From sequence record OR992646: a DNA stretch of 33,119 nt. One strand, 5' to 3'. Both the position numbers and the translations under genes were made by a program. The DNA is from Escherichia phage ET-SD-TH. Positions within the stretch are counted from its first letter, which is position 1, and the number at the start of each line of letters is the position of its first letter. This document shows positions 1 through 24,064 of the stretch, piece after piece. A model generated the notes under the pieces. That model saw nothing but the letters and a program-made list of their open reading frames with translations, was not told the DNA's origin and searched no databases.

Positions 1-164
1 TCACCGGCCAGGTACGCATCGCGGAATTCTTCAACGTGCGCCTGGTCCACGTCACGGATGTTGTAGCCATCTTCCACATACAGTTCAGCCAGAGGCACCC
101 AAAACACCTTGCGCGGCTTTGCTTCGGTGGCACCTGCTTTATAGAGTTGTCCAATAGTAGCCAT
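1..164 (-). CDS. ParB-like nuclease domain protein, N-terminal fragment (gene runs off the window start)
   Basis: ATG at 164..162; translation MATIGQLYKAGATEAKPRKVFWVPLAELYVEDGYNIRDVDQAHVEEFRDAYLAG has the VP..EL....N.R spacing typical of the ParB N-terminal (ParBc) domain. Only 54 codons visible. Confidence 0.35.
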   Translation of the reverse strand, partial: MATIGQLYKAGATEAKPRKVFWVPLAELYVEDGYNIRDVDQAHVEEFRDAYLAG

Positions 165-239
165 TTACATAAATCCCAACACAAATGAAGTGATTAAAAA
201 TGAAGCCCATACAATAATGATGGGCAGATCACGTTTTTT

Positions 240-252
240 AACAATCATTGTT
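240..252. repeat. 13-bp palindrome AACAATCATTGTT (copy 1 of 3), overlapping the stop codon of the 236-aa gene and preceded by TTTTTT
   Basis: Exact sequence read at 240-252; reverse complement of the copies at 2465-2477 and 5581-5593. Confidence 0.45.
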
Positions 253-955
253 TACGATAACCTTTGCCAGAAATCCAAATTGCAATTTCTGTGGCAACAC
301 CAATGTCAAGACTGGTTTTTGTAGTGGCAGCAAAGTTAGCCAGTTCGTAAAGTATTTCATCACGCGCTTCACATTCATTTAGGTCGGCTTCTAACTGCTC
401 ATCGTTCAATATCGCAGTATCGCGAGGCACAACAATTCCTGCTGGTTGTACTTCGTGAGGATTAACAATGCGGTAAGAAATGATGTCACCGTCACTGCCA
501 GTATGTGACCATGCAAAATATTCTGCTCTGTCATTATTGATATGAAGCGGGCTAGGATTCCGGTATTTGACTTCAACAATTGCGTCACTATCCACAGGAC
601 ATTCACCGCCAGCCCATTCAATCCAGCCGTCAGCGTCGGCAGCAATTGCGGTTTTTCCTGCCCCTGTGTCAGCCGTGTAGTGTTCAGTTGAAACCTGGTA
701 CGGTCGCAGTTCTTTACTGGCTGCCAGCGCGGCTTCGTACTGGTCGCTGGTGATNNNNNNNNNNNNNNNNNNNNNNNNNNNNNNNNNNNNNNNNNNNNNN
801 NNNNNNNNNNNNNNNNNNNNNNNNNNNNNNNNNNNNNNNNNNNNNAGTTCACGGTCTGAATCTTGCGTAATAGCCTTCACTCCTTCCGGCCATCCGCCAC
901 GTTTCGGCAGTTCTTCAACCAGTATTTGCAGCAGGGTTTTATTTGATGTGTTCAT
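245..955 (-). CDS. hypothetical acidic protein (236 aa; 91 nt masked internally)
   Basis: Long minus-strand ORF immediately downstream of the tail D gene; protein-like composition; no motif I can recognise. Residues from 755-845 are unknown. Confidence 0.45.
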   Translation of the reverse strand: MNTSNKTLLQILVEELPKRGGWPEGVKAITQDSDREXXXXXXXXXXXXXXXXXXXXXXXXXXXXXXXITSDQYEAALAASKELRPYQVSTEHYTADTGAGKTAIAADADGWIEWAGGECPVDSDAIVEVKYRNPSPLHINNDRAEYFAWSHTGSDGDIISYRIVNPHEVQPAGIVVPRDTAILNDEQLEADLNECEARDEILYELANFAATTKTSLDIGVATEIAIWISGKGYRKQ

Positions 956-1049
956 GTGGGCATTACCTCGTTATTTATCCGGGCAGGTTATCCGCCCGTT
1001 CAAGGTAATGATATACGATGATGTAGAATGATTGCAACAATGTTTGTTG

Positions 1050-2204
1050 TTATTTTTCTTCGATGACATGGCCAGGGCCATCATCGCCTTCGTTAATGTC
1101 CTTTTCTTCGATCACGTGCCCTGGACCATCATCGTCAGGAGGGTCGCTTTCTTGCGGCTTCCTGCGCTCGATGATTTGCACCTTTGGTTCTTCTTCGCTG
1201 TTCGGCTTCGTTGCTTCCACGTCGCACGAATAACCGTTGTCATCCAGCCTGTGATCTGCGCGGGTAATCAGCCATTCGCCATCAATGCCATCACGGAACT
1301 CAACCAGCACCAGCTTGCATTCTGCGGCAATGGTAGGGTCACCGGGCAGCGTCACGGCAACAGTCACCTGGTTGCGCTGACGCTTCGACAGTTCGGCTTT
1401 GGCGGCGTCCAGCGCCATTGCCTGCGTTGGGTAGTATTTGCCAATCCGTTTGACCGGCTCCCCTTCGCCCACCTTCACTTCGTTGCGCGCTGCCTTCTTC
1501 GTCACCTGGTAGTAAGCCACCACCGTGCCTGCGTTTTCGCGCTTCTGGCTGGTTAGCCGGAATGCGGTGCAATCCTGCGCCGTCAGCGTTATGGTTGGCA
1601 GTTCTTCGCCGCTGGCCGTCTTACCTTCGCCGCGCTTCGTGACCGTGATTTTGCCGCCTGATGGTTTCACTACGCCGTCATATTTCTTGGCCAGTCGCAG
1701 CAACAGGTTCAGGTCAGATTCATCGGCCTGGTCAGTGTGGGGCAGGGTGATTTTGGCCATGCTTTCTGACACGGCTGATTCCATGCCGTGTTCTTCGGCA
1801 ATCTTCTTCACCATGTCGCCAAACTTCGTGCCTTTGGTCCAGCTACGTGATTTTTGCGTTTGCAGGTCGGTTTTGCCGCCCTTTGACTTGTCATAGGTGG
1901 CAGCTCTCGCCCTGATTGTCATGGTGCCTGGCCAGCCAGCCAGTTCCACTTCATCACAGATGAACAAGCCCATGCGCTGTGTCCAGTTATCATAACCCAG
2001 GAACAGTTCCAGTTCTGCGCCTGTTTCCGGCATCTGGATTGGGTTGGCCGGTTCATCATCGGCAAGGCTTATTTCCAGCGTGTCAGATTCCAGCCCTACG
2101 CCGTCAGACAGACTAAGGCTTATCAGGCGTTCATTGATTTTGGCGGTGATGTCATCGCCGTTGGCCAGCACGCGAAACGCTGGCGCAATCCCTGTTAATC
2201 CCAC
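1050..2204 (-). CDS. phage tail protein D (P2 gpD-like, late control D family)
   Basis: 384-aa ORF; N-terminus MGLTGIAPAFRVLANGDDITAKINERLISLSLSD matches the gpD family; sits after U and X as in P2-type tail modules; C-terminus carries a tandem DDGPGHVIEEK repeat. Confidence 0.85.
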   Translation of the reverse strand: MGLTGIAPAFRVLANGDDITAKINERLISLSLSDGVGLESDTLEISLADDEPANPIQMPETGAELELFLGYDNWTQRMGLFICDEVELAGWPGTMTIRARAATYDKSKGGKTDLQTQKSRSWTKGTKFGDMVKKIAEEHGMESAVSESMAKITLPHTDQADESDLNLLLRLAKKYDGVVKPSGGKITVTKRGEGKTASGEELPTITLTAQDCTAFRLTSQKRENAGTVVAYYQVTKKAARNEVKVGEGEPVKRIGKYYPTQAMALDAAKAELSKRQRNQVTVAVTLPGDPTIAAECKLVLVEFRDGIDGEWLITRADHRLDDNGYSCDVEATKPNSEEEPKVQIIERRKPQESDPPDDDGPGHVIEEKDINEGDDGPGHVIEEK

Positions 2205-2404
2205 AATTTCACCCCCTGCGTGGTCGCTGGCGTCGTGATTTCAGGCAGGTTGATGACCAGGCCAGCAGGCAGCACAGGTCCACGGTCTGCCAACCCTTTG
2301 TTGGCGTCCAGCAGTGCTTCCACGGTGCCAGCGTCCTGGTTTCCGTAGTATTTCCAGGCGATGTAATCCGCCGTGTCACCGTCTTTGGTAATGTAAGTTT
2401 GCAT
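2195..2404 (-). CDS. phage tail protein X (P2 gpX-like)
   Basis: 69-aa ORF MQTYITKDGDTADYIAWKYYGNQDAGTVEALLDANKGLADRGPVLPAG resembles P2 gpX; start overlaps the U stop, end overlaps the D start. Confidence 0.8.
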   Translation of the reverse strand: MQTYITKDGDTADYIAWKYYGNQDAGTVEALLDANKGLADRGPVLPAGLVINLPEITTPATTQGVKLWD

Positions 2405-2814
2405 CAGTTGAACCGCCGCAGTTGCAAATTGAATTCCTGTTTGCGCGGCGCACCGAACGCGGCAAACAATGATTGTTTTTCGTCAATGGCTTCAATCACC
2501 CAGCGGCCCCACAGCTTGCCCAGGCCGTCCACCAGCAACAGCGGCTGACCACGGCCAGCCATGCTGCGCATTTGCTCCACCTGCTGAAACCCGCCACGGT
2601 ATTCAGGGTAAATGATGCCAGCCAGGGTGATGGTTTCCTCTCCGATGCCCACGAATTGCGATGATGGTCGCTGGCCAAAGCGGTGCTGCGATGGCCACTT
2701 ATATTCGCTGTGGCGGTTCAGTTCCTGATATGCCGCAGTAAGGATGCAGAACTGGAAGCCGCCCAACATCATCATGATGTTGGTCTGCCCGGTTAAAATC
2801 GTGAAACTGGTCAT
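2404..2814 (-). CDS. phage tail protein U (P2 gpU-like)
   Basis: Contains MMMLGGFQF...SEYKWPSQHRFGQRPSSQFVG...LLLVDGLGKLWGRWVI...PRKQEFNLQLRRF, matching gpU; ATGA start/stop overlap with the tape measure gene (ATG 2814-2812, TGA 2813-2811) with GGAG upstream. An alternative start at the MMM run (2775) is possible. Confidence 0.8.
   Translation of the reverse strand: MTSFTILTGQTNIMMMLGGFQFCILTAAYQELNRHSEYKWPSQHRFGQRPSSQFVGIGEETITLAGIIYPEYRGGFQQVEQMRSMAGRGQPLLLVDGLGKLWGRWVIEAIDEKQSLFAAFGAPRKQEFNLQLRRFN
2465..2477. repeat. 13-bp palindrome AACAATGATTGTT (copy 2 of 3), inside the U coding region
   Basis: Exact sequence read at 2465-2477. Confidence 0.4.
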
Positions 2815-5150
2815 GGTGCCGTCACTCCGTCATTCATCATGCTGCGCTGCCGCACCTGGCGGCGGCGCTCCTGTTCGTCGGCAATACGTTTGGCCAGGTC
2901 TGTGGTGTTCTCACCAGGGCGCTGCACGATCTGCATCGTAGTTTGGCTGTTGTCCTGGTAGGTACTGCCTCCACGGTTAGCCAGTGCCGGTGCTGGCAAT
3001 GCGCTTGCTGGTGTCTGCGGTGTCGCCAGAGTGTTTCCTTCCGGCACGTCATCACCGCCGAACGGGTTTCTGAAAAAGTCTTTTGTTGACTCCCACGCGC
3101 TGCCAGCCATGTCAGAAACGCTGTTTTTGAAATCAATTGCTTTTTGCGTCAGTGCGCCAATGTTGTCAGAAACCCAAATGATCTTATCAATCAGGAACTG
3201 AATTGGCCCCAACACAAAATCAATGCCTGCGGCAAGCGCCTTGCCGAACTTCTGGCCAGCGTCACCGGCCTTTTTCAGTTCTTCGCTGCTGTAGCTCACC
3301 GGTTCTGCCAGTTTTGTGAACCAATCCCACACCTTACCAGCAACGTCAGCAACCCACTGGAACGCGGTTTTGACTGGTCCTAACTTATCCCACAGCGCCT
3401 GGAATTTCTCCGTTACTGGCTGCAACCCTTGCTGGATTCCCTGCAAAGTGCCGGTCATGAACGCTTTGACGCCAGCCCAATTGCGGTAAATCCACAGGCC
3501 GCCAAGCGCCAGTCCGGTAATCAGGGCACCAATGCCGGTGGAAATGAACGCCGCACCGATGGCGCGCACACCAGCGACAACGGCAGGGATTCCACGCGAT
3601 GCCATGCCCACTAGTCCGCCGTTGGCCACGGTAGCTGCGGCACCCACTGCACGCGAGGAAACCGCCGTCAGCGCCATCTGTGCGCGGGCACCAGCCAGGG
3701 CACCTACAACACGAAGCGCACCACCACGCAGGTACGTGAACGCGAAGCCAGCAGCAAACGTGGCAATGCGCATGGTAATCAGTGCGCCAGCCGTGGCTAC
3801 AATGGCTTTGGTGACAACCGGGTGCGCTTGCGCCAGTTCTGTAACCTTGCCAATCCACGGACTAATGGTTTTCAGGACGCTGTTGAATGCTGGAAGCAGC
3901 ACGCTGCCAATAGTGATACCAAGTGCGGTGATCTGGTTTCGGAATATTACCAGTTCGTTTGCCGTTGTTGCGGCCCGTGCCTGGTATTCTTTTTCCATAG
4001 AACCGGCATATTTCATTTTGTTCGCTACAGCGTCAAAATTCTTTTCCAGTTCCTTGATGTTCGTCAGCAATGGCGCAATTGAACCAACAACCTCTTTGCC
4101 AAAAAGCTGCGTCAGAACCGCTGACTGTTCGTGTTTCCGCAGTTTTGCAACCTGCTTGAGAATGACAAGCATGGTTTTTTTGGAGTCCCGTTGCATGGAT
4201 TTTGCAACTGCTGTTGAGGAATAGCCAAGCCGTGCGAATGCTTCTCGCTGCGATTTTGCTTTACCCGCCGTCAGTGACAGCATCAGGTTTTTGATACCAG
4301 TGGCGGCAATCTCGTTTTGCACACCCATGCCGCGCAGTGTCGCACCAAGTGCGGCAATTTCACCGGAAGCAGTACCGGCAACCTCGCCAAGTGGCCCGAT
4401 GCGCTGCACGATCTCCATGATGTCTTTGGCTGATGCGGCAGTGTTATTGCCCAGGTAGTTGATTTTGTCAGCCAGGGCGACAACCTGTTGCTGGTTCATC
4501 TTGAACGCAGAGCGCATCTCTGCCATCGCCTGGCCTGCCTGGTCGGCGGTGATGTCGAACGCCACGCCCATTTTGATGGCTGATTCCGCAAACGTCATCA
4601 GATCTTTGGCTGCAATGCCAGACTGACCACCAGCGGCAACGATCTTGCCAATGTCGTTGGCAGTCATCGGCAGAACTTTTGACATGTTGATAATGTCCTG
4701 CCCCATCTTTTTGAACCCGTCAGGCGTGTCGAAATCAACAACCTTTTTCACGTCAGCCATCGTTGATTCAAAATCAATCGCTGCTTTGACGGGTGCGGCA
4801 ATAGTGGCACCCAGGGCGATGGTGCCCATTATGCCGCTTTTGTATTCTTCGCGCTTATCAAGATTTCGCTGGCGTGCATCCTCCACACGTTTCAGGCGTT
4901 CGGTGGCGGTGCGAAGTTTGTCCACCGCAGCGACGTTTGCGGCATATTTGGCGCGCAGTGAATCAACGTTTTTGCCCTGGCGGCCAAACGTCTGTATGGC
5001 GTTGGTTAGCGTGCGTTGCTCGCGTTCCAGTTTGGCCATTGCCGAGCCAACCTGTTCCACAGATGATTTGACGGTGCCAAATGCGCCTTTAAGGCTGCTT
5101 GAAACTGCCCCGCCTATCGTGATCGTTGCATTGAGCTTCTTATTTGCCAT
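2811..5150 (-). CDS. phage tail tape measure protein (P2 gpT-like)
   Basis: 779-aa ORF rich in Ala/Gly with long helical segments and hydrophobic glycine-rich central stretches; positioned directly after the E/E' chaperone pair; ATG at 5150-5148. Confidence 0.85.
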   Translation of the reverse strand: MANKKLNATITIGGAVSSSLKGAFGTVKSSVEQVGSAMAKLEREQRTLTNAIQTFGRQGKNVDSLRAKYAANVAAVDKLRTATERLKRVEDARQRNLDKREEYKSGIMGTIALGATIAAPVKAAIDFESTMADVKKVVDFDTPDGFKKMGQDIINMSKVLPMTANDIGKIVAAGGQSGIAAKDLMTFAESAIKMGVAFDITADQAGQAMAEMRSAFKMNQQQVVALADKINYLGNNTAASAKDIMEIVQRIGPLGEVAGTASGEIAALGATLRGMGVQNEIAATGIKNLMLSLTAGKAKSQREAFARLGYSSTAVAKSMQRDSKKTMLVILKQVAKLRKHEQSAVLTQLFGKEVVGSIAPLLTNIKELEKNFDAVANKMKYAGSMEKEYQARAATTANELVIFRNQITALGITIGSVLLPAFNSVLKTISPWIGKVTELAQAHPVVTKAIVATAGALITMRIATFAAGFAFTYLRGGALRVVGALAGARAQMALTAVSSRAVGAAATVANGGLVGMASRGIPAVVAGVRAIGAAFISTGIGALITGLALGGLWIYRNWAGVKAFMTGTLQGIQQGLQPVTEKFQALWDKLGPVKTAFQWVADVAGKVWDWFTKLAEPVSYSSEELKKAGDAGQKFGKALAAGIDFVLGPIQFLIDKIIWVSDNIGALTQKAIDFKNSVSDMAGSAWESTKDFFRNPFGGDDVPEGNTLATPQTPASALPAPALANRGGSTYQDNSQTTMQIVQRPGENTTDLAKRIADEQERRRQVRQRSMMNDGVTAP

Positions 5151-5156
5151 TTATTT

Positions 5157-5566
5157 TTAAGCCTTCGGCAATCCTTCCAACCACCACACAAAGCGGGAAA
5201 CCCGCAACCTTTGAATTTCCGATAACTGCCAGCCCGTATGACTTGCGAGCGCCAAAGCGCCCGCGCGTATGTATTCCGGGCTTAATCTAAAAAACTGATG
5301 TAGGCAGCCTGTAGGCGCTTATAGTCTTTCAGAGGCAGGCGGCGGATGTCATCAGGTGCCTGTTCACACAGGTTGGCAAACGTCTGGATTTCGCGCGCAG
5401 CATCGCTGCCGCCCATGTCGCTTGCAATTTCCTGGTCAGCCACGGTTGGTTCACGCATACGCAGCACGGAAACGTCAACGCCTGCGATTTTCAGTGGTCG
5501 TGACAGGGTGATGTCACAGTGGCCGGTTTCGTTGTTGAATTTCAGGTAATCAGGTAATTTCGCCAT
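5157..5566 (-). CDS. tail assembly chaperone E+E' (predicted -1 frameshift product)
   Basis: After the slippery heptamer TTTTTTA (5294..5288) the -1 frame stays open for 43 codons (RLSPEYIRAGALALASHTGWQLSEIQRLRVSRFVWWLEGLPKA) and stops at TAA 5159..5157, 6 nt before the tape measure ATG. It fills the otherwise non-coding 5151-5281 gap exactly as in P2 E/E' and lambda G/GT. Confidence 0.5.
5282..5566 (-). CDS. tail assembly chaperone E (P2 gpE-like)
   Basis: 94-aa ORF MAKLPDYLKFNNETGHCDITLSRPLKIAGVDVSVLRMREPTVADQE..., matching the gpE family; located between tube and tape measure genes. Confidence 0.75.
   Translation of the reverse strand: MAKLPDYLKFNNETGHCDITLSRPLKIAGVDVSVLRMREPTVADQEIASDMGGSDAAREIQTFANLCEQAPDDIRRLPLKDYKRLQAAYISFLD
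5288..5294 (-). other. putative -1 programmed ribosomal frameshift slippery site TTTTTTA (X_XXY_YYZ) at the end of gene E
   Basis: Minus-strand sequence ATC AGT TTT TTA GAT TAA; heptamer T_TTT_TTA lies 1 codon before the E stop. Confidence 0.5.
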
Positions 5567-5580
5567 TTCTTATCGCCTTA

Positions 5581-5593
5581 AACAATGATTGTT
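5581..5593. repeat. 13-bp palindrome AACAATGATTGTT (copy 3 of 3), 15-28 nt upstream of the E start
   Basis: Exact sequence read at 5581-5593. Confidence 0.45.
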
Positions 5594-5599
5594 GAAAAT

Positions 5600-5619
5600 G
5601 GCCAGCCAAATGACTGGCC
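5600..5619 (-). terminator. terminator-like hairpin between tube and E genes (possible attenuator)
   Basis: GGCCAG-N8-CTGGCC stem (5600-5605 / 5614-5619) directly after the tube stop; followed on the minus strand by AUUUUCAACAAUCAUUGUUU. Confidence 0.3.
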
Positions 5620-5626
5620 GTAAAAA

Positions 5627-6133
5627 TTACATCGCCAGCGCGGAACGGATGGCGGCCAGGGTGTCTACACCGTTGATGATGCGCACCATGTTTTCCACGT
5701 CGATTTCGTGGATGGTCTTTCCGTTATGCTGCTGCTTGAAATAGTTCAGGCTGACAGTCACGTTAAGGGAACTTAATTCCCCAGGCGTCCAGGTGCCTGG
5801 CTCCATGCTGGTGATTTTGCCGCGCATGTTCATGACAACGCCTTTCACGCTGCCATCATAGGATTCCAGCGCACCGCGAAACGTCAGCGGAACGCTTGCG
5901 CCTTCTGACAGGCCAAACAGCGCCAACACGTCAGAATCATAGGCACGCAGCGCAAAACTTGCCTCCAGCTTTTCCATGCCCAACGTCACATCAATGGGCG
6001 CGTCCATGCCGCCTGCGCGGAATTCTTCGGTTTGCAGGGTTAAGGTGGGCGGCGTGACGCTCTCCACCTGGCCCGCGTAACCACGGCCATCAACAAATAA
6101 GTTGATGTTTTTCAAAACGTCACGTGCGGCCAT
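5627..6133 (-). CDS. phage tail tube protein (P2 FII-like)
   Basis: 168-aa [46 protein letters not shown]..., matching the contractile-tail tube family; its ATG (6133-6131) overlaps the sheath stop by 1 nt (TAATG). Confidence 0.85.
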   Translation of the reverse strand: MAARDVLKNINLFVDGRGYAGQVESVTPPTLTLQTEEFRAGGMDAPIDVTLGMEKLEASFALRAYDSDVLALFGLSEGASVPLTFRGALESYDGSVKGVVMNMRGKITSMEPGTWTPGELSSLNVTVSLNYFKQQHNGKTIHEIDVENMVRIINGVDTLAAIRSALAM

Positions 6134-7557
6134 TATTCGAATACCTCACTAATATAATCGTTGGTCAACTGGCTGCGGAAGATAATGTGTTCAGCCGGAT
6201 AAACAGGCGTGAAATCAAAATCAAAGTATACCTTACCGTCAGCGATCTGGTCAGCAGTATTTAAGTCAGGGTCAGCCCAACACGTGCCGCCAAGAATTGC
6301 GCCAAGGCTCACCAGGTTGCGCAGGTACGCGTTCACGCCTTCAATCACGTCATTGACGTATTGTTTGGTGATGCCACGGTCTACGGCCCACAGGTGTGCA
6401 CGCAGCAGGCTGTCATTGATGATGTCAGCCGTGCGAACAACGCACAGGAACGCCCATTTCGGATCGCTGGAAGTGGTGCGGTTGCCCCACAGGCGGAAAC
6501 CATCCTGGCGAATGATGGTGGTGACTTCGTTTTCGTTCAGCAGGTTTGCACGGCTGGACGTATCACCCAGGGTGAAATCAATGGTTCTGGCCGTGCCCTG
6601 AATGCCATAGATTTCCTGGTTTGATGGTGACCACCAGAAACCGCGCTCGTTGTCGATGCGGGCAATCAGGCCAGCCACGCGCGGCGATGCCCAATCAGTA
6701 ATCGTGGTGCCATCTTCGTCAAGCACCAGCACTTTTGGGTCAACCACATAAACGCGCTTGCTGCCAAAGTCTTTGCGGTAGGCGATGGCGTCAGCGTCGT
6801 TGGTGTTAGGGCCGTCAGCGATGATGACAGCACGCAGGCGGTTGGCGATGCCAAGCAGTTCAGAAACCACGGCATTGGCTGCAACGCCAACGGATGCGGT
6901 TGCAGTTGCGCCGGTGCCGTTTCCGCCAGTGATGGCTACGGTTGGCGCGCTGGTGTAACCCATGCCGGAATTGGTGACGGTGATTTTGGTGATGACTCCA
7001 CCAACCACAGTGGCTTCCGCAGTTGCGCCAGAACCGCCGCCACCAGTCAGTGTGACTGTCGGTGCCGTGGTGTAGCCGCTGCCGCCATTGCCAATGGTGA
7101 TAGCTGTGACGCCATCCTGAACGCGGGTATGCGTGAATCCAGGCACGCACAGAATGCGAGGCGAGTAGCCAACAACGGATTCAGCGCCAAGCAGTGCGTG
7201 AACGCCTTCATATTTGCCGGTTGATGCGTTAACACCTCCCATGATGTTGGCCAGTGTTGCTGCTTCTTCTTCTCCTTCTTCAACGCGCACAACGATAACT
7301 ACCGCGCCGATCTGGTCCAGGATGGCATCCAGTGCTTTTGGCAGTGTGCCTTCACCGGTTCCAAGTAGGTCCAGTTTAGCCGCTTCTCGCTGGCTGCCAG
7401 CAATCAGGGTAGGGGTGTTAATCGGGAATGCGTCAGGGTCGGCATTCGGCGCTGTGCCTACAATGCCAATGACGCTGGATTTAACGGTTTGAATGACGCG
7501 TGAACCGGAATCAATTTCCAGCACCTCCACGCCATGTAAGAACTCAGTACCTGCCAT
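6133..7557 (-). CDS. phage tail sheath protein (P2 FI-like) with internal repeat-containing insertion
   Basis: 474 aa from ATG 7557-7555 to TAA 6135-6133; N-terminus [54 protein letters not shown] and C-terminal ...[26 protein letters not shown]... follow the FI sheath pattern. The supplied ORF continues into the N run only as an artefact. Confidence 0.9.
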
Positions 7558-7574
7558 TATTCGGTTTCCTATTG

Positions 7575-7588
7575 ACTGTGCACACAGT
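7575..7588. promoter_or_regulatory. inverted repeat ACTGTG-CA-CACAGT in the sheath 5' leader; candidate late-promoter operator
   Basis: Read directly at 7575-7588, 18-31 nt upstream of the sheath ATG; further CACTG copies at 7598-7602 and 7616-7620 (minus-strand orientation). Confidence 0.3.
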
Positions 7589-7649
7589 GAAAATTCGCAG
7601 TGTGATGGTCGCAGGAACAGTGCGTGGCTTCTTCTTGGGGTTTGTCCGT

Positions 7650-7673
7650 AAAAAAAGCCCGCGTGATGCGGGC
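7650..7673 (-). terminator. intrinsic terminator upstream of the sheath gene
   Basis: Minus-strand RNA GCCCGC-AUCA-(C)GCGGGC followed by UUUUUUU (plus-strand A run 7650-7656, stem 7657-7673). Confidence 0.6.
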
Positions 7674-10600
7674 AAAGGCGACAAATCAGTAACNNNNNNN
7701 NNNNNNNNNNNNNNNNNNNNNNNNNNNNNNNNNNNNNNNNNNNNNNNNNNNNNNNNNNNNNNNNNNNNNNNNNNNNNNNNNNNNNNNNNNNNNNNNNNNN
7801 NNNNNNNNNNNNNNNNNNNNNNNNNNNNNNNNNNNNNNNNNNNNNNNNNNNNNNNNNNNNNNNNNNNNNNNNNNNNNNNNNNNNNNNNNNNNNNNNNNNN
7901 NNNNNNNNNNNNNNNNNNNNNNNNNNNNNNNNNNNNNNNNNNNNNNNNNNNNNNNNNNNNNNNNNNNNNNNNNNNNNNNNNNNNNNNNNNNNNNNNNNNN
8001 NNNNNNNNNNNNNNNNNNNNNNNNNNNNNNNNNNNNNNNNNNNNNNNNNNNNNNNNNNNNNNNNNNNNNNNNNNNNNNNNNNNNNNNNNNNNNNNNNNNN
8101 NNNNNNNNNNNNNNNNNNNNNNNNNNNNNNNNNNNNNNNNNNNNNNNNNNNNNNNNNNNNNNNNNNNNNNNNNNNNNNNNNNNNNNNNNNNNNNNNNNNN
8201 NNNNNNNNNNNNNNNNNNNNNNNNNNNNNNNNNNNNNNNNNNNNNNNNNNNNNNNNNNNNNNNNNNNNNNNNNNNNNNNNNNNNNNNNNNNNNNNNNNNN
8301 NNNNNNNNNNNNNNNNNNNNNNNNNNNNNNNNNNNNNNNNNNNNNNNNNNNNNNNNNNNNNNNNNNNNNNNNNNNNNNNNNNNNNNNNNNNNNNNNNNNN
8401 NNNNNNNNNNNNNNNNNNNNNNNNNNNNNNNNNNNNNNNNNNNNNNNNNNNNNNNNNNNNNNNNNNNNNNNNNNNNNNNNNNNNNNNNNNNNNNNNNNNN
8501 NNNNNNNNNNNNNNNNNNNNNNNNNNNNNNNNNNNNNNNNNNNNNNNNNNNNNNNNNNNNNNNNNNNNNNNNNNNNNNNNNNNNNNNNNNNNNNNNNNNN
8601 NNNNNNNNNNNNNNNNNNNNNNNNNNNNNNNNNNNNNNNNNNNNNNNNNNNNNNNNNNNNNNNNNNNNNNNNNNNNNNNNNNNNNNNNNNNNNNNNNNNN
8701 NNNNNNNNNNNNNNNNNNNNNNNNNNNNNNNNNNNNNNNNNNNNNNNNNNNNNNNNNNNNNNNNNNNNNNNNNNNNNNNNNNNNNNNNNNNNNNNNNNNN
8801 NNNNNNNNNNNNNNNNNNNNNNNNNNNNNNNNNNNNNNNNNNNNNNNNNNNNNNNNNNNNNNNNNNNNNNNNNNNNNNNNNNNNNNNNNNNNNNNNNNNN
8901 NNNNNNNNNNNNNNNNNNNNNNNNNNNNNNNNNNNNNNNNNNNNNNNNNNNNNNNNNNNNNNNNNNNNNNNNNNNNNNNNNNNNNNNNNNNNNNNNNNNN
9001 NNNNNNNNNNNNNNNNNNNNNNNNNNNNNNNNNNNNNNNNNNNNNNNNNNNNNNNNNNNNNNNNNNNNNNNNNNNNNNNNNNNNNNNNNNNNNNNNNNNN
9101 NNNNNNNNNNNNNNNNNNNNNNNNNNNNNNNNNNNNNNNNNNNNNNNNNNNNNNNNNNNNNNNNNNNNNNNNNNNNNNNNNNNNNNNNNNNNNNNNNNNN
9201 NNNNNNNNNNNNNNNNNNNNNNNNNNNNNNNNNNNNNNNNNNNNNNNNNNNNNNNNNNNNNNNNNNNNNNNNNNNNNNNNNNNNNNNNNNNNNNNNNNNN
9301 NNNNNNNNNNNNNNNNNNNNNNNNNNNNNNNNNNNNNNNNNNNNNNNNNNNNNNNNNNNNNNNNNNNNNNNNNNNNNNNNNNNNNNNNNNNNNNNNNNNN
9401 NNNNNNNNNNNNNNNNNNNNNNNNNNNNNNNNNNNNNNNNNNNNNNNNNNNNNNNNNNNNNNNNNNNNNNNNNNNNNNNNNNNNNNNNNNNNNNNNNNNN
9501 NNNNNNNNNNNNNNNNNNNNNNNNNNNNNNNNNNNNNNNNNNNNNNNNNNNNNNNNNNNNNNNNNNNNNNNNNNNNNNNNNNNNNNNNNNNNNNNNNNNN
9601 NNNNNNNNNNNNNNNNNNNNNNNNNNNNNNNNNNNNNNNNNNNNNNNNNNNNNNNNNNNNNNNNNNNNNNNNNNNNNNNNNNNNNNNNNNNNNNNNNNNN
9701 NNNNNNNNNNNNNNNNNNNNNNNNNNNNNNNNNNNNNNNNNNNNNNNNNNNNNNNNNNNNNNNNNNNNNNNNNNNNNNNNNNNNNNNNNNNNNNNNNNNN
9801 NNNNNNNNNNNNNNNNNNNNNNNNNNNNNNNNNNNNNNNNNNNNNNNNNNNNNNNNNNNNNNNNNNNNNNNNNNNNNNNNNNNNNNNNNNNNNNNNNNNN
9901 NNNNNNNNNNNNNNNNNNNNNNNNNNNNNNNNNNNNNNNNNNNNNNNNNNNNNNNNNNNNNNNNNNNNNNNNNNNNNNNNNNNNNNNNNNNNNNNNNNNN
10001 NNNNNNNNNNNNNNNNNNNNNNNNNNNNNNNNNNNNNNNNNNNNNNNNNNNNNNNNNNNNNNNNNNNNNNNNNNNNNNNNNNNNNNNNNNNNNNNNNNNN
10101 NNNNNNNNNNNNNNNNNNNNNNNNNNNNNNNNNNNNNNNNNNNNNNNNNNNNNNNNNNNNNNNNNNNNNNNNNNNNNNNNNNNNNNNNNNNNNNNNNNNN
10201 NNNNNNNNNNNNNNNNNNNNNNNNNNNNNNNNNNNNNNNNNNNNNNNNNNNNNNNNNNNNNNNNNNNNNNNNNNNNNNNNNNNNNNNNNNNNNNNNNNNN
10301 NNNNNNNNNNNNNNNNNNNNNNNNNNNNNNNNNNNNNNNNNNNNNNNNNNNNNNNNNNNNNNNNNNNNNNNNNNNNNNNNNNNNNNNNNNNNNNNNNNNN
10401 NNNNNNNNNNNNNNNNNNNNNNNNNNNNNNNNNNNNNNNNNNNNNNNNNNNNNNNNNNNNNNNNNNNNNNNNNNNNNNNNNNNNNNNNNNNNNNNNNNNN
10501 NNNNNNNNNNNNNNNNNNNNNNNNNNNNNNNNNNNNNNNNNNNNNNNNNNNNNNNNNNNNNNNNNNNNNNNNNNNNNNNNNNNNNNNNNNNNNNNNNNNN

Positions 10601-12750
10601 NNNNNNNNNNNNNNNNNNNNNNNNNNNNNNNNNNNNNNNNNNNNNNNNNNNNNNNNNNNNNNNNNNNNNNNNNNNNNNNNNNNNNNNNNNNNNNNNNNNN
10701 NNNNNNNNNNNNNNNNNNNNNNNNNNNNNNNNNNNNNNNNNNNNNNNNNNNNNNNNNNNNNNNNNNNNNNNNNNNNNNNNNNNNNNNNNNNNNNNNNNNN
10801 NNNNNNNNNNNNNNNNNNNNNNNNNNNNNNNNNNNNNNNNNNNNNNNNNNNNNNNNNNNNNNNNNNNNNNNNNNNNNNNNNNNNNNNNNNNNNNNNNNNN
10901 NNNNNNNNNNNNNNNNNNNNNNNNNNNNNNNNNNNNNNNNNNNNNNNNNNNNNNNNNNNNNNNNNNNNNNNNNNNNNNNNNNNNNNNNNNNNNNNNNNNN
11001 NNNNNNNNNNNNNNNNNNNNNNNNNNNNNNNNNNNNNNNNNNNNNNNNNNNNNNNNNNNNNNNNNNNNNNNNNNNNNNNNNNNNNNNNNNNNNNNNNNNN
11101 NNNNNNNNNNNNNNNNNNNNNNNNNNNNNNNNNNNNNNNNNNNNNNNNNNNNNNNNNNNNNNNNNNNNNNNNNNNNNNNNNNNNNNNNNNNNNNNNNNNN
11201 NNNNNNNNNNNNNNNNNNNNNNNNNNNNNNNNNNNNNNNNNNNNNNNNNNNNNNNNNNNNNNNNNNNNNNNNNNNNNNNNNNNNNNNNNNNNNNNNNNNN
11301 NNNNNNNNNNNNNNNNNNNNNNNNNNNNNNNNNNNNNNNNNNNNNNNNNNNNNNNNNNNNNNNNNNNNNNNNNNNNNNNNNNNNNNNNNNNNNNNNNNNN
11401 NNNNNNNNNNNNNNNNNNNNNNNNNNNNNNNNNNNNNNNNNNNNNNNNNNNNNNNNNNNNNNNNNNNNNNNNNNNNNNNNNNNNNNNNNNNNNNNNNNNN
11501 NNNNNNNNNNNNNNNNNNNNNNNNNNNNNNNNNNNNNNNNNNNNNNNNNNNNNNNNNNNNNNNNNNNNNNNNNNNNNNNNNNNNNNNNNNNNNNNNNNNN
11601 NNNNNNNNNNNNNNNNNNNNNNNNNNNNNNNNNNNNNNNNNNNNNNNNNNNNNNNNNNNNNNNNNNNNNNNNNNNNNNNNNNNNNNNNNNNNNNNNNNNN
11701 NNNNNNNNNNNNNNNNNNNNNNNNNNNNNNNNNNNNNNNNNNNNNNNNNNNNNNNNNNNNNNNNNNNNNNNNNNNNNNNNNNNNNNNNNNNNNNNNNNNN
11801 NNNNNNNNNNNNNNNNNNNNNNNNNNNNNNNNNNNNNNNNNNNNNNNNNNNNNNNNNNNNNNNNNNNNNNNNNNNNNNNNNNNNNNNNNNNNNNNNNNNN
11901 NNNNNNNNNNNNNNNNNNNNNNNNNNNNNNNNNNNNNNNNNNNNNNNNNNNNNNNNNNNNNNNNNNNNNNNNNNNNNNNNNNNNNNNNNNNNNNNNNNNN
12001 NNNNNNNNNNNNNNNNNNNNNNNNNNNNNNNNNNNNNNNNNNNNNNNNNNNNNNNNNNNNNNNNNNNNNNNNNNNNNNNNNNNNNNNNNNNNNNNNNNNN
12101 NNNNNNNNNNNNNNNNNNNNNNNNNNNNNNNNNNNNNNNNNNNNNNNNNNNNNNNNNNNNNNNNNNNNNNNNNNNNNNNNNNNNNNNNNNNNNNNNNNNN
12201 NNNNNNNNNNNNNNNNNNNNNNNNNNNNNNNNNNNNNNNNNNNNNNNNNNNNNNNNNNNNNNNNNNNNNNNNNNNNNNNNNNNNNNNNNNNNNNNNNNNN
12301 NNNNNNNNNNNNNNNNNNNNNNNNNNNNNNNNNNNNNNNNNNNNNNNNNNNNNNNNNNNNNNNNNNNNNNNNNNNNNNNNNNNNNNNNNNNNNNNNNNNN
12401 NNNNNNNNNNNNNNNNNNNNNNNNNNNNNNNNNNNNNNNNNNNNNNNNNNNNNNNNNNNNNNNNNNNNNNNNNNNNNNNNNNNNNNNNNNNNNNNNNNNN
12501 NNNNNNNNNNNNNNNNNNNNNNNNNNNNNNNNNNNNNNNNNNNNNNNNNNNNNNNNNNNNNNNNNNNNNNNNNNNNNNNNNNNNNNNNNNNNNNNNNNNN
12601 NNNNNNNNNNNNNNNNNNNNNNNNNNNNNNNNNNNNNNNNNNNNNNNNNNNNNNNNNNNNNNNNNNNNNNNNNNNNNNNNNNNNNNNNNNNNNNNNNNNN
12701 NNNNNNNNNNNNNNNNNNNNNNNNNNNNNNNNNNNNNNNNNNNNNNNNNN

Positions 12751-12947
12751 TCTGCACGCCTGGCTGATGCAAAGCGCGATACAGGCCAGACATCGTGACA
12801 TCATAGCCAATGCGGCGCTGGCCTTCGGCATAAGCCGCCACGGCGTCAAACGCGGCCTGGCGCACCACTTCTGAATCAGGGCCAGGCAGCAGGGTTAATT
12901 CTGCGCTGATGGCGTAGGTGATAATCTGCGCGGAACGAACTTCAACG
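12751..12947 (-). CDS. baseplate J-like protein fragment (both ends masked)
   Basis: Only 197 nt visible; minus-frame translation VEVRSAQIITYAISAELTLLPGPDSEVVRQAAFDAVAAYAEGQRRIGYDVTMSGLYRALHQPGVQ resembles baseplate J (gpJ) family sequence; position upstream of the sheath fits P2 order. Confidence 0.35.
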
Positions 12948-15900
12948 NNNNNNNNNNNNNNNNNNNNNNNNNNNNNNNNNNNNNNNNNNNNNNNNNNNNN
13001 NNNNNNNNNNNNNNNNNNNNNNNNNNNNNNNNNNNNNNNNNNNNNNNNNNNNNNNNNNNNNNNNNNNNNNNNNNNNNNNNNNNNNNNNNNNNNNNNNNNN
13101 NNNNNNNNNNNNNNNNNNNNNNNNNNNNNNNNNNNNNNNNNNNNNNNNNNNNNNNNNNNNNNNNNNNNNNNNNNNNNNNNNNNNNNNNNNNNNNNNNNNN
13201 NNNNNNNNNNNNNNNNNNNNNNNNNNNNNNNNNNNNNNNNNNNNNNNNNNNNNNNNNNNNNNNNNNNNNNNNNNNNNNNNNNNNNNNNNNNNNNNNNNNN
13301 NNNNNNNNNNNNNNNNNNNNNNNNNNNNNNNNNNNNNNNNNNNNNNNNNNNNNNNNNNNNNNNNNNNNNNNNNNNNNNNNNNNNNNNNNNNNNNNNNNNN
13401 NNNNNNNNNNNNNNNNNNNNNNNNNNNNNNNNNNNNNNNNNNNNNNNNNNNNNNNNNNNNNNNNNNNNNNNNNNNNNNNNNNNNNNNNNNNNNNNNNNNN
13501 NNNNNNNNNNNNNNNNNNNNNNNNNNNNNNNNNNNNNNNNNNNNNNNNNNNNNNNNNNNNNNNNNNNNNNNNNNNNNNNNNNNNNNNNNNNNNNNNNNNN
13601 NNNNNNNNNNNNNNNNNNNNNNNNNNNNNNNNNNNNNNNNNNNNNNNNNNNNNNNNNNNNNNNNNNNNNNNNNNNNNNNNNNNNNNNNNNNNNNNNNNNN
13701 NNNNNNNNNNNNNNNNNNNNNNNNNNNNNNNNNNNNNNNNNNNNNNNNNNNNNNNNNNNNNNNNNNNNNNNNNNNNNNNNNNNNNNNNNNNNNNNNNNNN
13801 NNNNNNNNNNNNNNNNNNNNNNNNNNNNNNNNNNNNNNNNNNNNNNNNNNNNNNNNNNNNNNNNNNNNNNNNNNNNNNNNNNNNNNNNNNNNNNNNNNNN
13901 NNNNNNNNNNNNNNNNNNNNNNNNNNNNNNNNNNNNNNNNNNNNNNNNNNNNNNNNNNNNNNNNNNNNNNNNNNNNNNNNNNNNNNNNNNNNNNNNNNNN
14001 NNNNNNNNNNNNNNNNNNNNNNNNNNNNNNNNNNNNNNNNNNNNNNNNNNNNNNNNNNNNNNNNNNNNNNNNNNNNNNNNNNNNNNNNNNNNNNNNNNNN
14101 NNNNNNNNNNNNNNNNNNNNNNNNNNNNNNNNNNNNNNNNNNNNNNNNNNNNNNNNNNNNNNNNNNNNNNNNNNNNNNNNNNNNNNNNNNNNNNNNNNNN
14201 NNNNNNNNNNNNNNNNNNNNNNNNNNNNNNNNNNNNNNNNNNNNNNNNNNNNNNNNNNNNNNNNNNNNNNNNNNNNNNNNNNNNNNNNNNNNNNNNNNNN
14301 NNNNNNNNNNNNNNNNNNNNNNNNNNNNNNNNNNNNNNNNNNNNNNNNNNNNNNNNNNNNNNNNNNNNNNNNNNNNNNNNNNNNNNNNNNNNNNNNNNNN
14401 NNNNNNNNNNNNNNNNNNNNNNNNNNNNNNNNNNNNNNNNNNNNNNNNNNNNNNNNNNNNNNNNNNNNNNNNNNNNNNNNNNNNNNNNNNNNNNNNNNNN
14501 NNNNNNNNNNNNNNNNNNNNNNNNNNNNNNNNNNNNNNNNNNNNNNNNNNNNNNNNNNNNNNNNNNNNNNNNNNNNNNNNNNNNNNNNNNNNNNNNNNNN
14601 NNNNNNNNNNNNNNNNNNNNNNNNNNNNNNNNNNNNNNNNNNNNNNNNNNNNNNNNNNNNNNNNNNNNNNNNNNNNNNNNNNNNNNNNNNNNNNNNNNNN
14701 NNNNNNNNNNNNNNNNNNNNNNNNNNNNNNNNNNNNNNNNNNNNNNNNNNNNNNNNNNNNNNNNNNNNNNNNNNNNNNNNNNNNNNNNNNNNNNNNNNNN
14801 NNNNNNNNNNNNNNNNNNNNNNNNNNNNNNNNNNNNNNNNNNNNNNNNNNNNNNNNNNNNNNNNNNNNNNNNNNNNNNNNNNNNNNNNNNNNNNNNNNNN
14901 NNNNNNNNNNNNNNNNNNNNNNNNNNNNNNNNNNNNNNNNNNNNNNNNNNNNNNNNNNNNNNNNNNNNNNNNNNNNNNNNNNNNNNNNNNNNNNNNNNNN
15001 NNNNNNNNNNNNNNNNNNNNNNNNNNNNNNNNNNNNNNNNNNNNNNNNNNNNNNNNNNNNNNNNNNNNNNNNNNNNNNNNNNNNNNNNNNNNNNNNNNNN
15101 NNNNNNNNNNNNNNNNNNNNNNNNNNNNNNNNNNNNNNNNNNNNNNNNNNNNNNNNNNNNNNNNNNNNNNNNNNNNNNNNNNNNNNNNNNNNNNNNNNNN
15201 NNNNNNNNNNNNNNNNNNNNNNNNNNNNNNNNNNNNNNNNNNNNNNNNNNNNNNNNNNNNNNNNNNNNNNNNNNNNNNNNNNNNNNNNNNNNNNNNNNNN
15301 NNNNNNNNNNNNNNNNNNNNNNNNNNNNNNNNNNNNNNNNNNNNNNNNNNNNNNNNNNNNNNNNNNNNNNNNNNNNNNNNNNNNNNNNNNNNNNNNNNNN
15401 NNNNNNNNNNNNNNNNNNNNNNNNNNNNNNNNNNNNNNNNNNNNNNNNNNNNNNNNNNNNNNNNNNNNNNNNNNNNNNNNNNNNNNNNNNNNNNNNNNNN
15501 NNNNNNNNNNNNNNNNNNNNNNNNNNNNNNNNNNNNNNNNNNNNNNNNNNNNNNNNNNNNNNNNNNNNNNNNNNNNNNNNNNNNNNNNNNNNNNNNNNNN
15601 NNNNNNNNNNNNNNNNNNNNNNNNNNNNNNNNNNNNNNNNNNNNNNNNNNNNNNNNNNNNNNNNNNNNNNNNNNNNNNNNNNNNNNNNNNNNNNNNNNNN
15701 NNNNNNNNNNNNNNNNNNNNNNNNNNNNNNNNNNNNNNNNNNNNNNNNNNNNNNNNNNNNNNNNNNNNNNNNNNNNNNNNNNNNNNNNNNNNNNNNNNNN
15801 NNNNNNNNNNNNNNNNNNNNNNNNNNNNNNNNNNNNNNNNNNNNNNNNNNNNNNNNNNNNNNNNNNNNNNNNNNNNNNNNNNNNNNNNNNNNNNNNNNNN

Positions 15901-23404: not shown

Positions 23405-24064
23405 TTAATGTCGCCTTATCTAATGCTAAAATCAATTTTGATTATCCACGCACAACGCGAATNNNNNNNNNNNNNNNNNNNNNNNNNNNNNNNNNNNNNN
23501 NNNNNNNNNNNNNNNNNNNNNNNNNNNNNNNNNNNNNNNNNNNNNNNNNNNNNNNNNNNNNNNNNNNNNNNNNNNNNNNNNNNNNNNNNNNNNNNNNNNN
23601 NNNNNNNNNNNNNNNNNNNNNNNNNNNNNNNNNNNNNNNNNNNNNNNNNNNNNNNNNNNNNNNNNNNNNNNNNNNNNNNNNNNNNNNNNNNNNNNNNNNN
23701 NNNNNNNNNNNNNNNNNNNNNNNNNNNNNNNNNNNNNNNNNNNNNNNNNNNNNNNNNNNNNNNNNNNNNNNNNNNNNNNNNNNNNNNNNNNNNNNNNNNN
23801 NNNNNNNNNNNNNNNNNNNNNNNNNNNNNNNNNNNNNNNNNNNNNNNNNNNNNNNNNNNNNNNNNNNNNNNNNNNNNNNNNNNNNNNNNNNNNNNNNNNN
23901 NNNNNNNNNNNNNNNNNNNNNNNNNNNNNNNNNNNNNNNNNNNNNNNNNNNNNNNNNNNNNNNNNNNNNNNNNNNNNNNNNNNNNNNNNNNNNNNNNNNN
24001 NNNNNNNNNNNNNNNNNNNNNNNNNNNNNNNNNNNNNNNNNNNNNNNNNNNNNNNNNNNNNNNN

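Follow-up and report, generated by a model that had tools for sequence, protein, structure and literature searches.

A dispersed 13-bp palindrome in Jilinvirus genomes is a candidate DNA site for a dimeric protein, tentatively the orphan ParB/KorB-like protein of the phage

The closest described counterparts of the sites reported here are the operators of RK2 KorB, a ParB-family protein with a CTPase-type N-terminal domain and a helix-turn-helix (HTH), which is also the best structural match (8qa9) to a protein encoded by the phage. Like the phage sites, the OB operators, whose core is TTTAGCGGCTAAA (TTTAGC-G-GCTAAA), are odd palindromes of 13 bp that have G/C in the middle (PMC11790492). They too are distributed over the whole replicon, with copies both at promoters and at a distance from any, although their sequence is unrelated to that of the phage motif. 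Unlike RK2, the phage has neither a KorA nor an IncC/ParA partner, carries GHHR at the position of the GERR box, and is a mostly virulent phage rather than a plasmid, for which binding is a candidate property. Chromosomal ParB-parS and Noc-NBS systems share with the phage the HTH_ParB domain (PF17762; Spo0J, E = 1e-10), and their sites are likewise palindromic, multicopy, often intragenic and clustered near parB. However, parS and NBS are 16-bp even palindromes whose half-sites are unrelated to AACAAT, and the phage shows no ParA, no origin-proximal logic and no evident role in partition. The linear plasmid-prophage N15 has a few SopB centromere palindromes scattered among genes for lytic functions, much as the Jilinvirus sites are, but N15 is a plasmid prophage with SopA and SopB, whereas Jilinviruses lack the partner ATPase and have no known plasmid state.

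Two repeat families of mycobacteriophages are also comparable. Cluster O phages carry more than 30 copies of a 17-bp repeat, TGTTCGG-N3-CCGAACA (PMC4351075). Like the sites described here, these repeats are dyad-symmetric, scattered through non-temperate genomes and mostly away from promoters; a dimeric binder has been predicted for them and a ParB-like gene is present, two elements between which the authors drew no link (PMC4351075). They differ in their longer and unrelated sequence, in their higher copy number, and in host and phage type. The stoperators of Cluster A, 13-bp sequences present in many copies within operons and often at gene junctions, are thought to block the elongating polymerase (PMC4351075); they lack symmetry, follow the direction of transcription and are recognised by the immunity repressor. 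Stoperator-type repressor sites were rejected as a model for the phage motif, since the latter is symmetric, has no copy in the cI operator region and is kept in phages without CI.

The window, a 33,119-nucleotide stretch of Escherichia phage ET-SD-TH (OR992646), contains 20,062 real bases, the remainder consisting of six N-masked blocks (~13 kb). Exact members of the AACAAT(C/G)ATTGTT family, matching the pattern AACAATSATTGTT, occur at 240-252, 2465-2477 and 5581-5593, as an earlier note on this DNA had reported, with C as the central base of the + strand at the first and G at the other two. None was found in 100 dinucleotide-preserving shuffles, and the ~13 kb of masking makes the excess of the exact 13-mer larger still; no other palindrome with 6-base arms recurs at least three times in the window. 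The one-mismatch copy placed by the same note at 1037-1049 is in fact at 1036-1048, and its assignment of the motif to the tail region describes the copies in the window but not a restriction to tail genes, as relatives carry copies all round the genome. Counting in the complete genomes of these relatives, a check which the note had proposed, revealed a further exact copy, the fifth strong site, in a replication gene outside the window, so that each genome has four exact copies and one conserved variant. Relaxed copies (ACAA-N3-TTGT) number 10-13 per complete genome against 0.45 expected, and those of the form AACAA-N3-TTGTT 6-7 against 0.025, the related sites, about 11-13 in all, being dispersed around each ~42-kb Jilinvirus genome. 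Within this family of dyad-symmetric sites, which has the consensus aACAAt-S-aTTGTt, the 13-mer represents the strongest form. The shuffles, the conservation and the synonymous-site test given below together rule out chance or a codon artefact.

All genes in the region of the sites lie on the - strand. The first site, S1 (AACAATCATTGTT on the + strand; 240-252), has its centre at the second base of the TGA (247-245) that ends a 236-aa ORF, 82 nt upstream of the start codon of an orphan ParB/KorB-family gene, of which the 5' end (first 54 codons; 1-164, - strand) is contained in the window and the remainder lies past its edge. A terminator-like hairpin, GCCCAT...ATGGGC followed by a T-rich run (205-225, - strand), separates S1 from the parB ribosome-binding site. 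The one-mismatch copy, Sdeg (AACAATGTTTGTT, with the variant AACAAACATTGTT read on the - strand; 1036-1048), starts one base past the stop codon of the D-like gene (1050-1052) and overlaps by two bases, at its upstream edge, the -35 hexamer of a predicted sigma-70-type promoter for the 236-aa gene and parB (TTGCAA-18-TATCAT; 1008-1037, - strand). This promoter is a consensus match only, at 9 of 12 positions, and its -10 region is conserved in relatives including Serratia phage MQ-4. S2 (2465-2477) is within the U-like tail gene, where it spans the codons K-Q-S-L-F (AAA CAA TCA TTG TTT) and precedes the start codon of the next gene by 67 nt. S3 (5581-5593) occupies the spacer between the tube and E-like genes: it lies 6 nt past a terminator-like hairpin 3' of the tube gene (GGCCAGTCATTTGGCTGGCC; 5600-5619, - strand), which has an 8-bp stem in the centroid structure and is invariant in seven genomes; the ribosome-binding site follows directly, and the ATG of the E-like gene (5566) is 14 nt from the end of the site. 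The coordinates agree with the gene-boundary placements first described, upstream of E, over the 236-aa stop and at the D stop. Two weaker sequences in the window are AACAATTGTTGTT (AACAA-N3-TTGTT, two mismatches; 22820-22832), ~70 nt into the large-terminase gene and at an orthologous position in relatives, where the arms are kept and the central three bases vary, and ACAACAATTGT (ACAA-N3-TTGT; 29453-29463), a weak match of uncertain membership inside the primase gene. Six of 11 sites lie 15-130 nt ahead of a start codon (P = 0.004), and about half are deep within genes, distant from junctions. Several sites adjoin internal terminator hairpins or precede the next gene by 20-125 nt.

Identity of the window to vB_EcoM_ECO1230-10, an E. 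coli myovirus of the genus Jilinvirus, is ~95%. Position conservation in related phages, which the earlier note had asked about, was found in six genomes: the sites are orthologous in ECO1230-10, ep3, ECOO78, Bas97, Arya and KA2-1, the last two keeping the site positions at only ~75% DNA identity. S1 is conserved in ECO1230-10, ep3, ECOO78 and Bas97, has one mismatch in Arya, and in KA2-1 has A as its centre base, with retention of a TAA stop. The 'mismatch' of Sdeg is retained identically in five relatives, and the same variant is present twice in MQ-4. Seven genomes agree at every synonymous position within the motif at S2; of comparable codons elsewhere in the U-like gene, 58% vary. Codons that overlap the motif are invariant in 13 of 16 cases, compared with 48% of other amino-acid-conserved codons (Fisher p = 0.008), with the three variable positions outside the motif proper, and the coding sites are read in differing frames (QSL, IIV). 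The S3 spacer is better conserved than the coding sequence on either side, and the equivalent place holds related cores in MQ-4 (CAAATCATTTG) and in PPpW-3 and Persinger (AAATCATTT). The fifth copy lies ~120 nt upstream of an HTH_17 gene in all Jilinviruses and in MQ-4. These comparisons show that selection maintains the sites as nucleotide sequence, both in coding and in non-coding DNA. Read on the sense strand, almost all Jilinvirus sites have C in the centre, a bias that MQ-4 does not show, that is slight in the Pseudomonas phages, and that is forced in the QSL frame because a central G gives a stop codon; though partly imposed by coding, it would not be predicted by a fully symmetric DNA site and is counted against one.

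The folding energies of the motif (-0.3 and -0.7 kcal/mol) are no better than those of shuffles, an Rfam search with the motif matched no family, and stable hairpins adjoin the motif rather than form from it. Folding energy and Rfam thus rule out an RNA hairpin or a known RNA family, in agreement with the original view that so small a loop would not form one. The companion suggestion, a DNA site for a dimeric protein, is supported by nucleotide-level conservation between genes and in differing frames, and we consider the palindrome a well-supported candidate for the site of a sequence-specific dimeric protein. A nucleoid protein had been offered as one option, but nothing points there: the motif is lineage-specific and differs in related phages of other hosts.

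As the binder we tentatively favour the phage's own orphan ParB-family protein, a candidate that the earlier note had overlooked. Its full-length orthologue in ECO1230-10 contains HTH_ParB (PF17762, E = 9e-13) and matches PDB chains of Spo0J (1e-10) and KorB (3e-4), as well as of ParB and Noc; its AlphaFold2 model (pLDDT 88) has the KorB-KorA-DNA complex 8qa9 as its best PDB match (E = 2e-9). The protein combines a ParB/CTPase-type fold at the N-terminus with a ParB helix-turn-helix and, at the C-terminus, a helical domain. Nucleotide-binding box II (GERRxRA) reads GHHRFAGA in the E. coli phages and GQHRYLGA in Arya, KA2-1 and MQ-4. No ParA partner is present, the 103-aa ORF downstream having no Pfam match, and the locus is therefore not classifiable as a partition system; the altered GERR box and the missing partner also count against this candidate, and a CTP-driven clamp would be no more than a possibility. 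None of the five strong sites is farther than 5.9 kb from parB on the circular map (P = 0.0018), and a site adjoins parB in four lineages, including those in which the gene has moved. In the Jilinviruses these are S1 and Sdeg; in MQ-4, CACAATCATTGTT is centred 26 nt ahead of the parB ATG; and in PPpW-3 and Persinger, where parB belongs to the early operon, one of only five sites is at the operon head. The recognition helix RSPSDV(A/R)N(M/F)LALA, found in ParBs that are ~50% identical overall, pairs with CAAT-S-ATTG, the helix TRQRVDQLL pairs with AAAT-S-ATTT, and the helices TRQH/SRTH (FoX2, Mano and MD8) belong to phages without such a motif. Three helix classes thereby match three motif states, two of which have the inner core AAT-S-ATT in common. 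The protein P0027, considered as a possible case of a shared ParB helix on an unrelated backbone, is encoded by a phage whose tail genes are Mu-like; its helix is altered, and the motif is missing there.

Some observations count against ParB. The AAT-S-ATT core is common to the Enterobacteria and Pseudomonas classes despite their quite different recognition helices. Acinetobacter phage Alexa has the same genome plan without a ParB, and yet carries eight copies of a dispersed palindrome of its own, CGTTTAAACG; if this is the same phenomenon, the binder would be another protein. The motif is absent from other enterobacterial phages with ParB homologues 47-60% identical, most of which have no enriched palindrome, and where GTGAC-NN-GTCAC is enriched in phages with ParB homologues its agreement with the ParB helix is imperfect. 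Two further comparisons gave no pointer either way. Plasmid homologues, apart from five records at 50-55% identity, are only ~31% identical and did not lead to any site already described; and when the presence and absence of all 56 proteins was profiled across relatives with and without the motif, no protein showed a matching pattern.

If ParB is the binder, the sites may work like the OB operators of RK2 KorB. By touching the -35 of the predicted promoter of the 236-aa gene and parB, Sdeg could serve in autoregulation, the remaining copies would be loading or roadblock sites within the long late operon and the replication operon, and from these sites ParB could adjust how strongly the genes downstream are expressed, or organise the DNA of the phage. 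It is possible, although we hold it to be doubtful, that the orphan ParB/KorB-like protein and about a dozen parS-like palindromes form a genome-wide control or organising system of lytic growth, operating without ParA and with co-evolving sites (CAAT-S-ATTG in phages of Enterobacteria, AAAT-S-ATTT in Pseudomonas phages). Phages of the genus form clear plaques and most lack an integrase and a repressor (PMC11990801), and a search of 5,426 complete E. coli genomes detected no prophage of this kind; an assay with lysate from induced lysogens, as first proposed, is therefore unsuited to them.

The evidence for a protein-binding DNA site would apply equally to another dimeric DNA-binding protein of the phage, acting on a dispersed regulon or as a roadblock, which is an unlikely but serious alternative. 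Candidates are a 75-aa HTH_17 protein (excisionase/MerR-like; FoX2 also encodes it), a 62-aa HTH 'repressor', a 144-aa late activator, or a small uncharacterised protein such as Orf42 or Orf55. The HTH_17 gene is the one preceded by the fifth exact copy, Alexa retains both the HTH_17 protein and the late activator alongside its palindrome, and the position of six of 11 sites shortly before start codons is that expected of operators or activator sites. However, the recognition region of the HTH_17 protein is invariant among phages with three different motifs or none, while in the 62-aa protein and the late activator the helices vary among phages with a common motif and agree among phages without one in common. 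No Jilinvirus site lies upstream of the genes for these last two proteins or in the main early and late control regions, and S3 leaves no space for a promoter ahead of the E-like gene. Two specific versions can be discarded: a CI-like repressor operator, as there is no copy in the cI/early-gene spacer of Bas97 and the motif persists in phages without CI, the repressor being absent from most members; and a late-promoter activator site, as no copies occur in the spacers before the late activator, terminase and sheath genes and S3 is too near the E-like ATG.

A recruited host protein, with the lineage differences reflecting the hosts (CAAT-S-ATTG in Enterobacteria, AAAT-S-ATTT in Pseudomonas, the Alexa palindrome in Acinetobacter), would account for one motif being common to two Pseudomonas phages of different genera and another to phages of E. 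coli, Klebsiella, Enterobacter and Salmonella, and the 7-1-7 layout of Fur-family boxes may offer a likeness to the AAT-N-ATT centre. We nevertheless find it distinctly unlikely. Host group is confounded with phage phylogeny, unrelated enterobacterial phage contigs (L009-L051) have no copy at one mismatch or fewer, and each of the 120 stretches listed from a scan of bacterial genomes with the 14-mer, a listing without the E. coli chromosome, had one scattered match and came from an unrelated taxon. A generic host repeat of the REP or MITE type, which would have many and often clustered copies in host chromosomes, showed no such pattern among those stretches. No E. coli regulator is known to have this consensus; a comparison by eye with the Fur 7-1-7 box, the NrdR box, the 434 operator (ACAA-N6-TTGT), KdgR, IHF, Ter and rrn boxA gave no agreement in spacing or sequence.

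An element acting in the mRNA, as a processing or protein-binding signal that sets the ratio of upstream to downstream products, would suit the sense-strand C at almost all Jilinvirus sites. It would also suit the layout repeated at S3, S1 and the MQ-4 parB site, in which a terminator hairpin is followed by an AATCATT core and a Shine-Dalgarno sequence, and which is retained even in the Pseudomonas phages. It is nonetheless improbable, given that the motif has no stable fold, that perfect dyad symmetry is unnecessary for an RNA signal, that about half of the sites are away from junctions, and that the strand bias fails in MQ-4, fades in the Pseudomonas phages and is forced in the QSL frame.

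That the copies serve as brief stretches of common sequence where modules meet, promoting recombination or gene-cassette exchange between related phages, is hardly credible: S1 and Sdeg do flank the 236-aa gene, the most variable one here (its protein is 35-40% identical, compared with 78% for the D-like neighbour) and absent from MQ-4, but S2, S3 and the helicase copy are in well-conserved syntenic DNA without a boundary, a length of 13 bp offers very little for homologous exchange, and the 236-aa proteins are homologous with a common C-terminus (GYRKQ), which points to divergence rather than cassette replacement. A link to DNA modification through the 236-aa neighbour, which has no Pfam or PDB match, was rejected because it is unrelated to the Nmad5 protein at that position in Alexa and because the ParB-activated T-dioxygenase system uses ParBs without an HTH (PMC13229309).

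Orphan ParB-like proteins are widespread on mobile genetic elements (PMC12704722), homologues of the one considered here occur in more than 300 phage records, and we found no role assigned in the literature to the orphan ParB of this phage family. A small, culturable group of E. coli phages now has a defined candidate DNA target with five strong sites, some at easily mutated synonymous positions, so that the matter is open to direct test. Should ParB prove to be the binder, long-range control of the KorB type would extend from plasmids to lytic phages, and graded expression within the 27-kb late operon would be explained. If it is not, the sites would still mark a sequence-specific factor acting genome-wide, and for annotation they mean that the genes of these phages contain conserved non-coding information.

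The palindrome AACAATSATTGTT, where S is C or G, occurs in three exact copies in the window, at 240-252 (S1), 2465-2477 (S2) and 5581-5593 (S3), as the earlier note had claimed, and in the excess over chance that it had seen (0 of 100 shuffles contained the motif). A one-mismatch copy exists as well, although one base away from where the note had placed it, at 1036-1048 (Sdeg), and a two-mismatch copy is found at 22820. No other palindrome with six-base arms recurs in this genome or its relatives and, as the flanks of the copies have nothing in common, the motif unit is really about 13 bp. The gene-boundary placements proposed for the copies agree with the gene coordinates. All genes in positions 1-6200 are on the minus strand, in the order tube (6133-5627), E-like chaperone (5566-5282), tape measure (5150-2811), U-like (2814-2404), 69-aa hub protein (2404-2195), D-like (2204-1050), a 236-aa ORF of unknown function (955-245) and the first 54 codons of a ParB-like gene (164-1). 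Between the E-like and tape measure genes, a gap of 131 nt (5150-5282) presumably holds a putative frameshift extension of the tail chaperone, as in the annotation of phage Mano. The observation of a repeated palindrome is thus confirmed and extended; papers mentioning Jilinvirus, the genus of the phage's relatives, were found to hold no description of the motif.

Masking affects what can be counted in the window, since 13,057 of its 33,119 bases are N, in six blocks (755-845, 7694-12750, 12948-18793, 23463-24064, 26274-27017 and 27233-27949) that hide any weaker copies within them, create spurious giant ORFs (e.g., 4,260 aa at 7544-20326) and put a run of X in the 236-aa protein. The unmasked sequence shares about 95% identity with Escherichia phage vB_EcoM_ECO1230-10, which has motif copies at 12537, 15763 and 18637, positions orthologous to the N blocks, and 89-93% with ECOO78, ep3, Bas97 and others. 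These relatives are Jilinvirus myoviruses (subfamily Iiscvirinae), about 42 kb in size, whose tail genes are P2-like. Phages of this type form clear plaques and have decayed lysogeny modules (PMC11990801), and no Jilinvirus-like prophage was found among 5,426 complete E. coli genomes. Within positions 1-6200, a single 500-bp piece of the tape measure gene (3073-3572) matched prophage tape measure genes in 26 complete E. coli genomes, at about 92% identity in five and 60-90% in the remaining 21, which looks like a local mosaic exchange.

The sites are conserved, as the follow-up proposed in the earlier note could establish: all four lie at orthologous positions in the six complete relatives compared (ECO1230-10, ep3, ECOO78, Bas97, Enterobacter phage Arya and Klebsiella phage KA2-1), including Arya and KA2-1, which are roughly 75% identical to the window. 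A fifth exact copy, outside the window, lies near the 3' end of the replication helicase/AAA gene in all six genomes. Because five relatives carry the same Sdeg variant (AACAAACATTGTT in gene orientation), this site is a conserved variant and not a decaying copy. In KA2-1 the copy covering the stop codon is centred on A, whereby the stop is kept as TAA; the central position is therefore free. Sixteen codons in four genes overlap sites, and 13 of them are without synonymous change; among other codons whose amino acid is conserved, this holds for 48% (Fisher p = 0.008). In the three site codons that vary, the changes fall just outside the motif. As the sites are also read in different frames (K-Q-S-L in three genes, I-I-V in two others), the constraint acts on DNA or RNA rather than on protein.

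The genome-wide count that had been suggested, made on full phage genomes with relaxed patterns, reveals a whole family of sites: 6-7 copies per genome of AACAA-N3-TTGTT (0.025 expected), 5-8 of ACAAT-N-ATTGT (0.025 expected) and 10-13 of ACAA-N3-TTGT (0.45 expected). The 11 sites of ECO1230-10 are spaced more evenly than random (gap coefficient of variation 0.48, P = 0.012), six of them lie 15-130 nt ahead of the next start codon (P = 0.004), and the five strong ones are all within 5.9 kb of parB (P = 0.0018). Taken over all possible binders, there is good indirect support for the earlier reading, in which a dimeric protein binds the motif as DNA, and that reading is probably correct.

As the binder itself we infer, tentatively, the phage's own ParB/KorB-like protein. 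Its gene, which begins 82 nt away from the S1 centre, encodes a 291-aa ParB-family protein that matches HTH_ParB (E 9e-13), Spo0J (1e-10) and KorB (3e-4), and its confident AlphaFold2 model (pLDDT 88) is closest to the RK2 KorB-KorA-DNA complex 8qa9 (E 2e-9), followed by ParB and Noc. In this protein (gene at window 1-164, in part, and at L001 2128-3003), box II reads GHHRFAGA, and GQHRY in Arya, KA2-1 and MQ-4, versus the canonical CTP-binding GERRxRA. No ParA partner was found, and the 103-aa ORF downstream of parB, annotated as 'ATPase', has no detectable domain. On the other side of S1, between parB and the D-like gene, the 236-aa ORF (245-955, minus strand) matched nothing in Pfam or PDB and no functional PHROG, and it varies more than any other gene here: its identity is 35-40% in Arya and KA2-1, the ep3 version is shorter, and MQ-4 has none. 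Its leader (956-1015, minus strand) folds far better than shuffles (-29.2 kcal/mol, z = -4.5), pairing the ribosome-binding region AGGUAAUG with CAUUACCU around an inner GC hairpin; the structure is kept in relatives and looks like a translational control element.

The putative association of motif and ParB recognition helix was tested across relatives. ParBs of the Enterobacteria group that are only about 50% identical have RSPSDVAN(M/F)LALA and the same motif in common. Serratia phage MQ-4, with the same genome plan but without the 236-aa gene, has the ParB helix RSPSDVRNMLALA and seven copies of CAAT-S-ATTG, along with a single CAATAATTG (0.38 expected), with CACAATCATTGTT centred 26 nt before the parB ATG. 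In the Pseudomonas phages PPpW-3 and Persinger, members of different genera, parB is relocated to the early operon; their ParBs are 59% identical overall and have a common helix, TRQRVDQLL. AAAT-S-ATTT occurs exactly five times in each genome (0.06-0.09 expected), at 3420, 16142, 28920, 33563 and 36507 in PPpW-3 (site form AAAATCATTTC) and at 2682, 7761, 16662, 29448 and 34612 in Persinger, where they account for every AATSATT in the genome; in both, the tube/E junction has one of the copies, and another heads the small parB-containing operon. The motif is absent from FoX2, Mano (17 kb examined) and MD8, whose helices are TRQH or SRTH. Xanthomonas phage FoX2 has four copies of CGGAA-N-TTCCG (0.05 expected; 3125, 5919, 10650 and 15079), which may be its counterpart of the motif.

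Several observations stand against a link to ParB. Acinetobacter phage Alexa lacks ParB yet has eight copies of the 10-bp palindrome CGTTTAAACG (0.04 expected; 3163, 10660, 10918, 16720, 22243, 26230, 33867 and 36229), some inside genes and some at junctions, a scatter much like that of the Jilinvirus motif. The inner AAT-S-ATT is common to classes with differing ParB helices; part of KorB specificity is reported to come from contacts outside the HTH. When all 56 proteins were profiled for presence and absence, none matched the motif cleanly. In other enterobacterial phages with ParB homologues there is no enriched palindrome or there is GTGAC-NN-GTCAC, which does not track the ParB helix cleanly. 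Such IMG/VR contigs carry the 12-14-bp palindrome (C/T)GTGAC(A/G)TGTCAC(G/A) at 2-4 copies per 20 kb, one of them about 0.5 kb past the end of parB, or 1.34 kb or so downstream from its start; the palindrome resembles the matS consensus but has one base fewer. A different phage protein is a possible binder, if an unlikely one: the HTH_17 protein has one unchanging recognition region in phages of every motif state, and neither the 62-aa repressor nor the late activator has a helix that varies with motif class. A host-encoded factor seems improbable. In a scan of bacterial genomes with a 14-mer, the matches listed were single and scattered over unrelated taxa, as chance predicts.

A role at the RNA level is improbable. 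The earlier note had argued against an RNA hairpin, rightly, as folding of the isolated motif yields -0.3 to -0.7 kcal/mol, which shuffled sequences equal, and an Rfam search with it found no family. Genuine structures do lie nearby, namely a conserved terminator-like stem 6 nt upstream of S3 and a second such stem between S1 and parB. The sense-strand centre is C at nearly all Jilinvirus sites and a layout of terminator hairpin, AATCATT core and Shine-Dalgarno recurs at two junctions and in several genera, which leaves room for an RNA-level or orientation-dependent role. This bias towards C is absent in MQ-4 and is partly forced, since in the QSL frame a G at the centre would create a stop codon. 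No copies occur in spacers where late promoters are expected. An operator of the CI-like repressor retained by some members was rejected, as no copy is present in the cI control region and all sites persist where CI is missing.

Of the published systems, two come closest: the 17-bp palindromes of Cluster O mycobacteriophages (PMC4351075), which are unexplained, and the OB sites of KorB, which, like the phage motif, are 13-bp palindromes with a central G/C (oligonucleotide sequence, PMC11790492) scattered over the replicon. Sdeg overlaps the -35 hexamer of a predicted promoter, TTGCAA-18-TATCAT, the sole such match beside a site on the gene strand of this stretch, and this promoter would drive both the 236-aa gene and parB.
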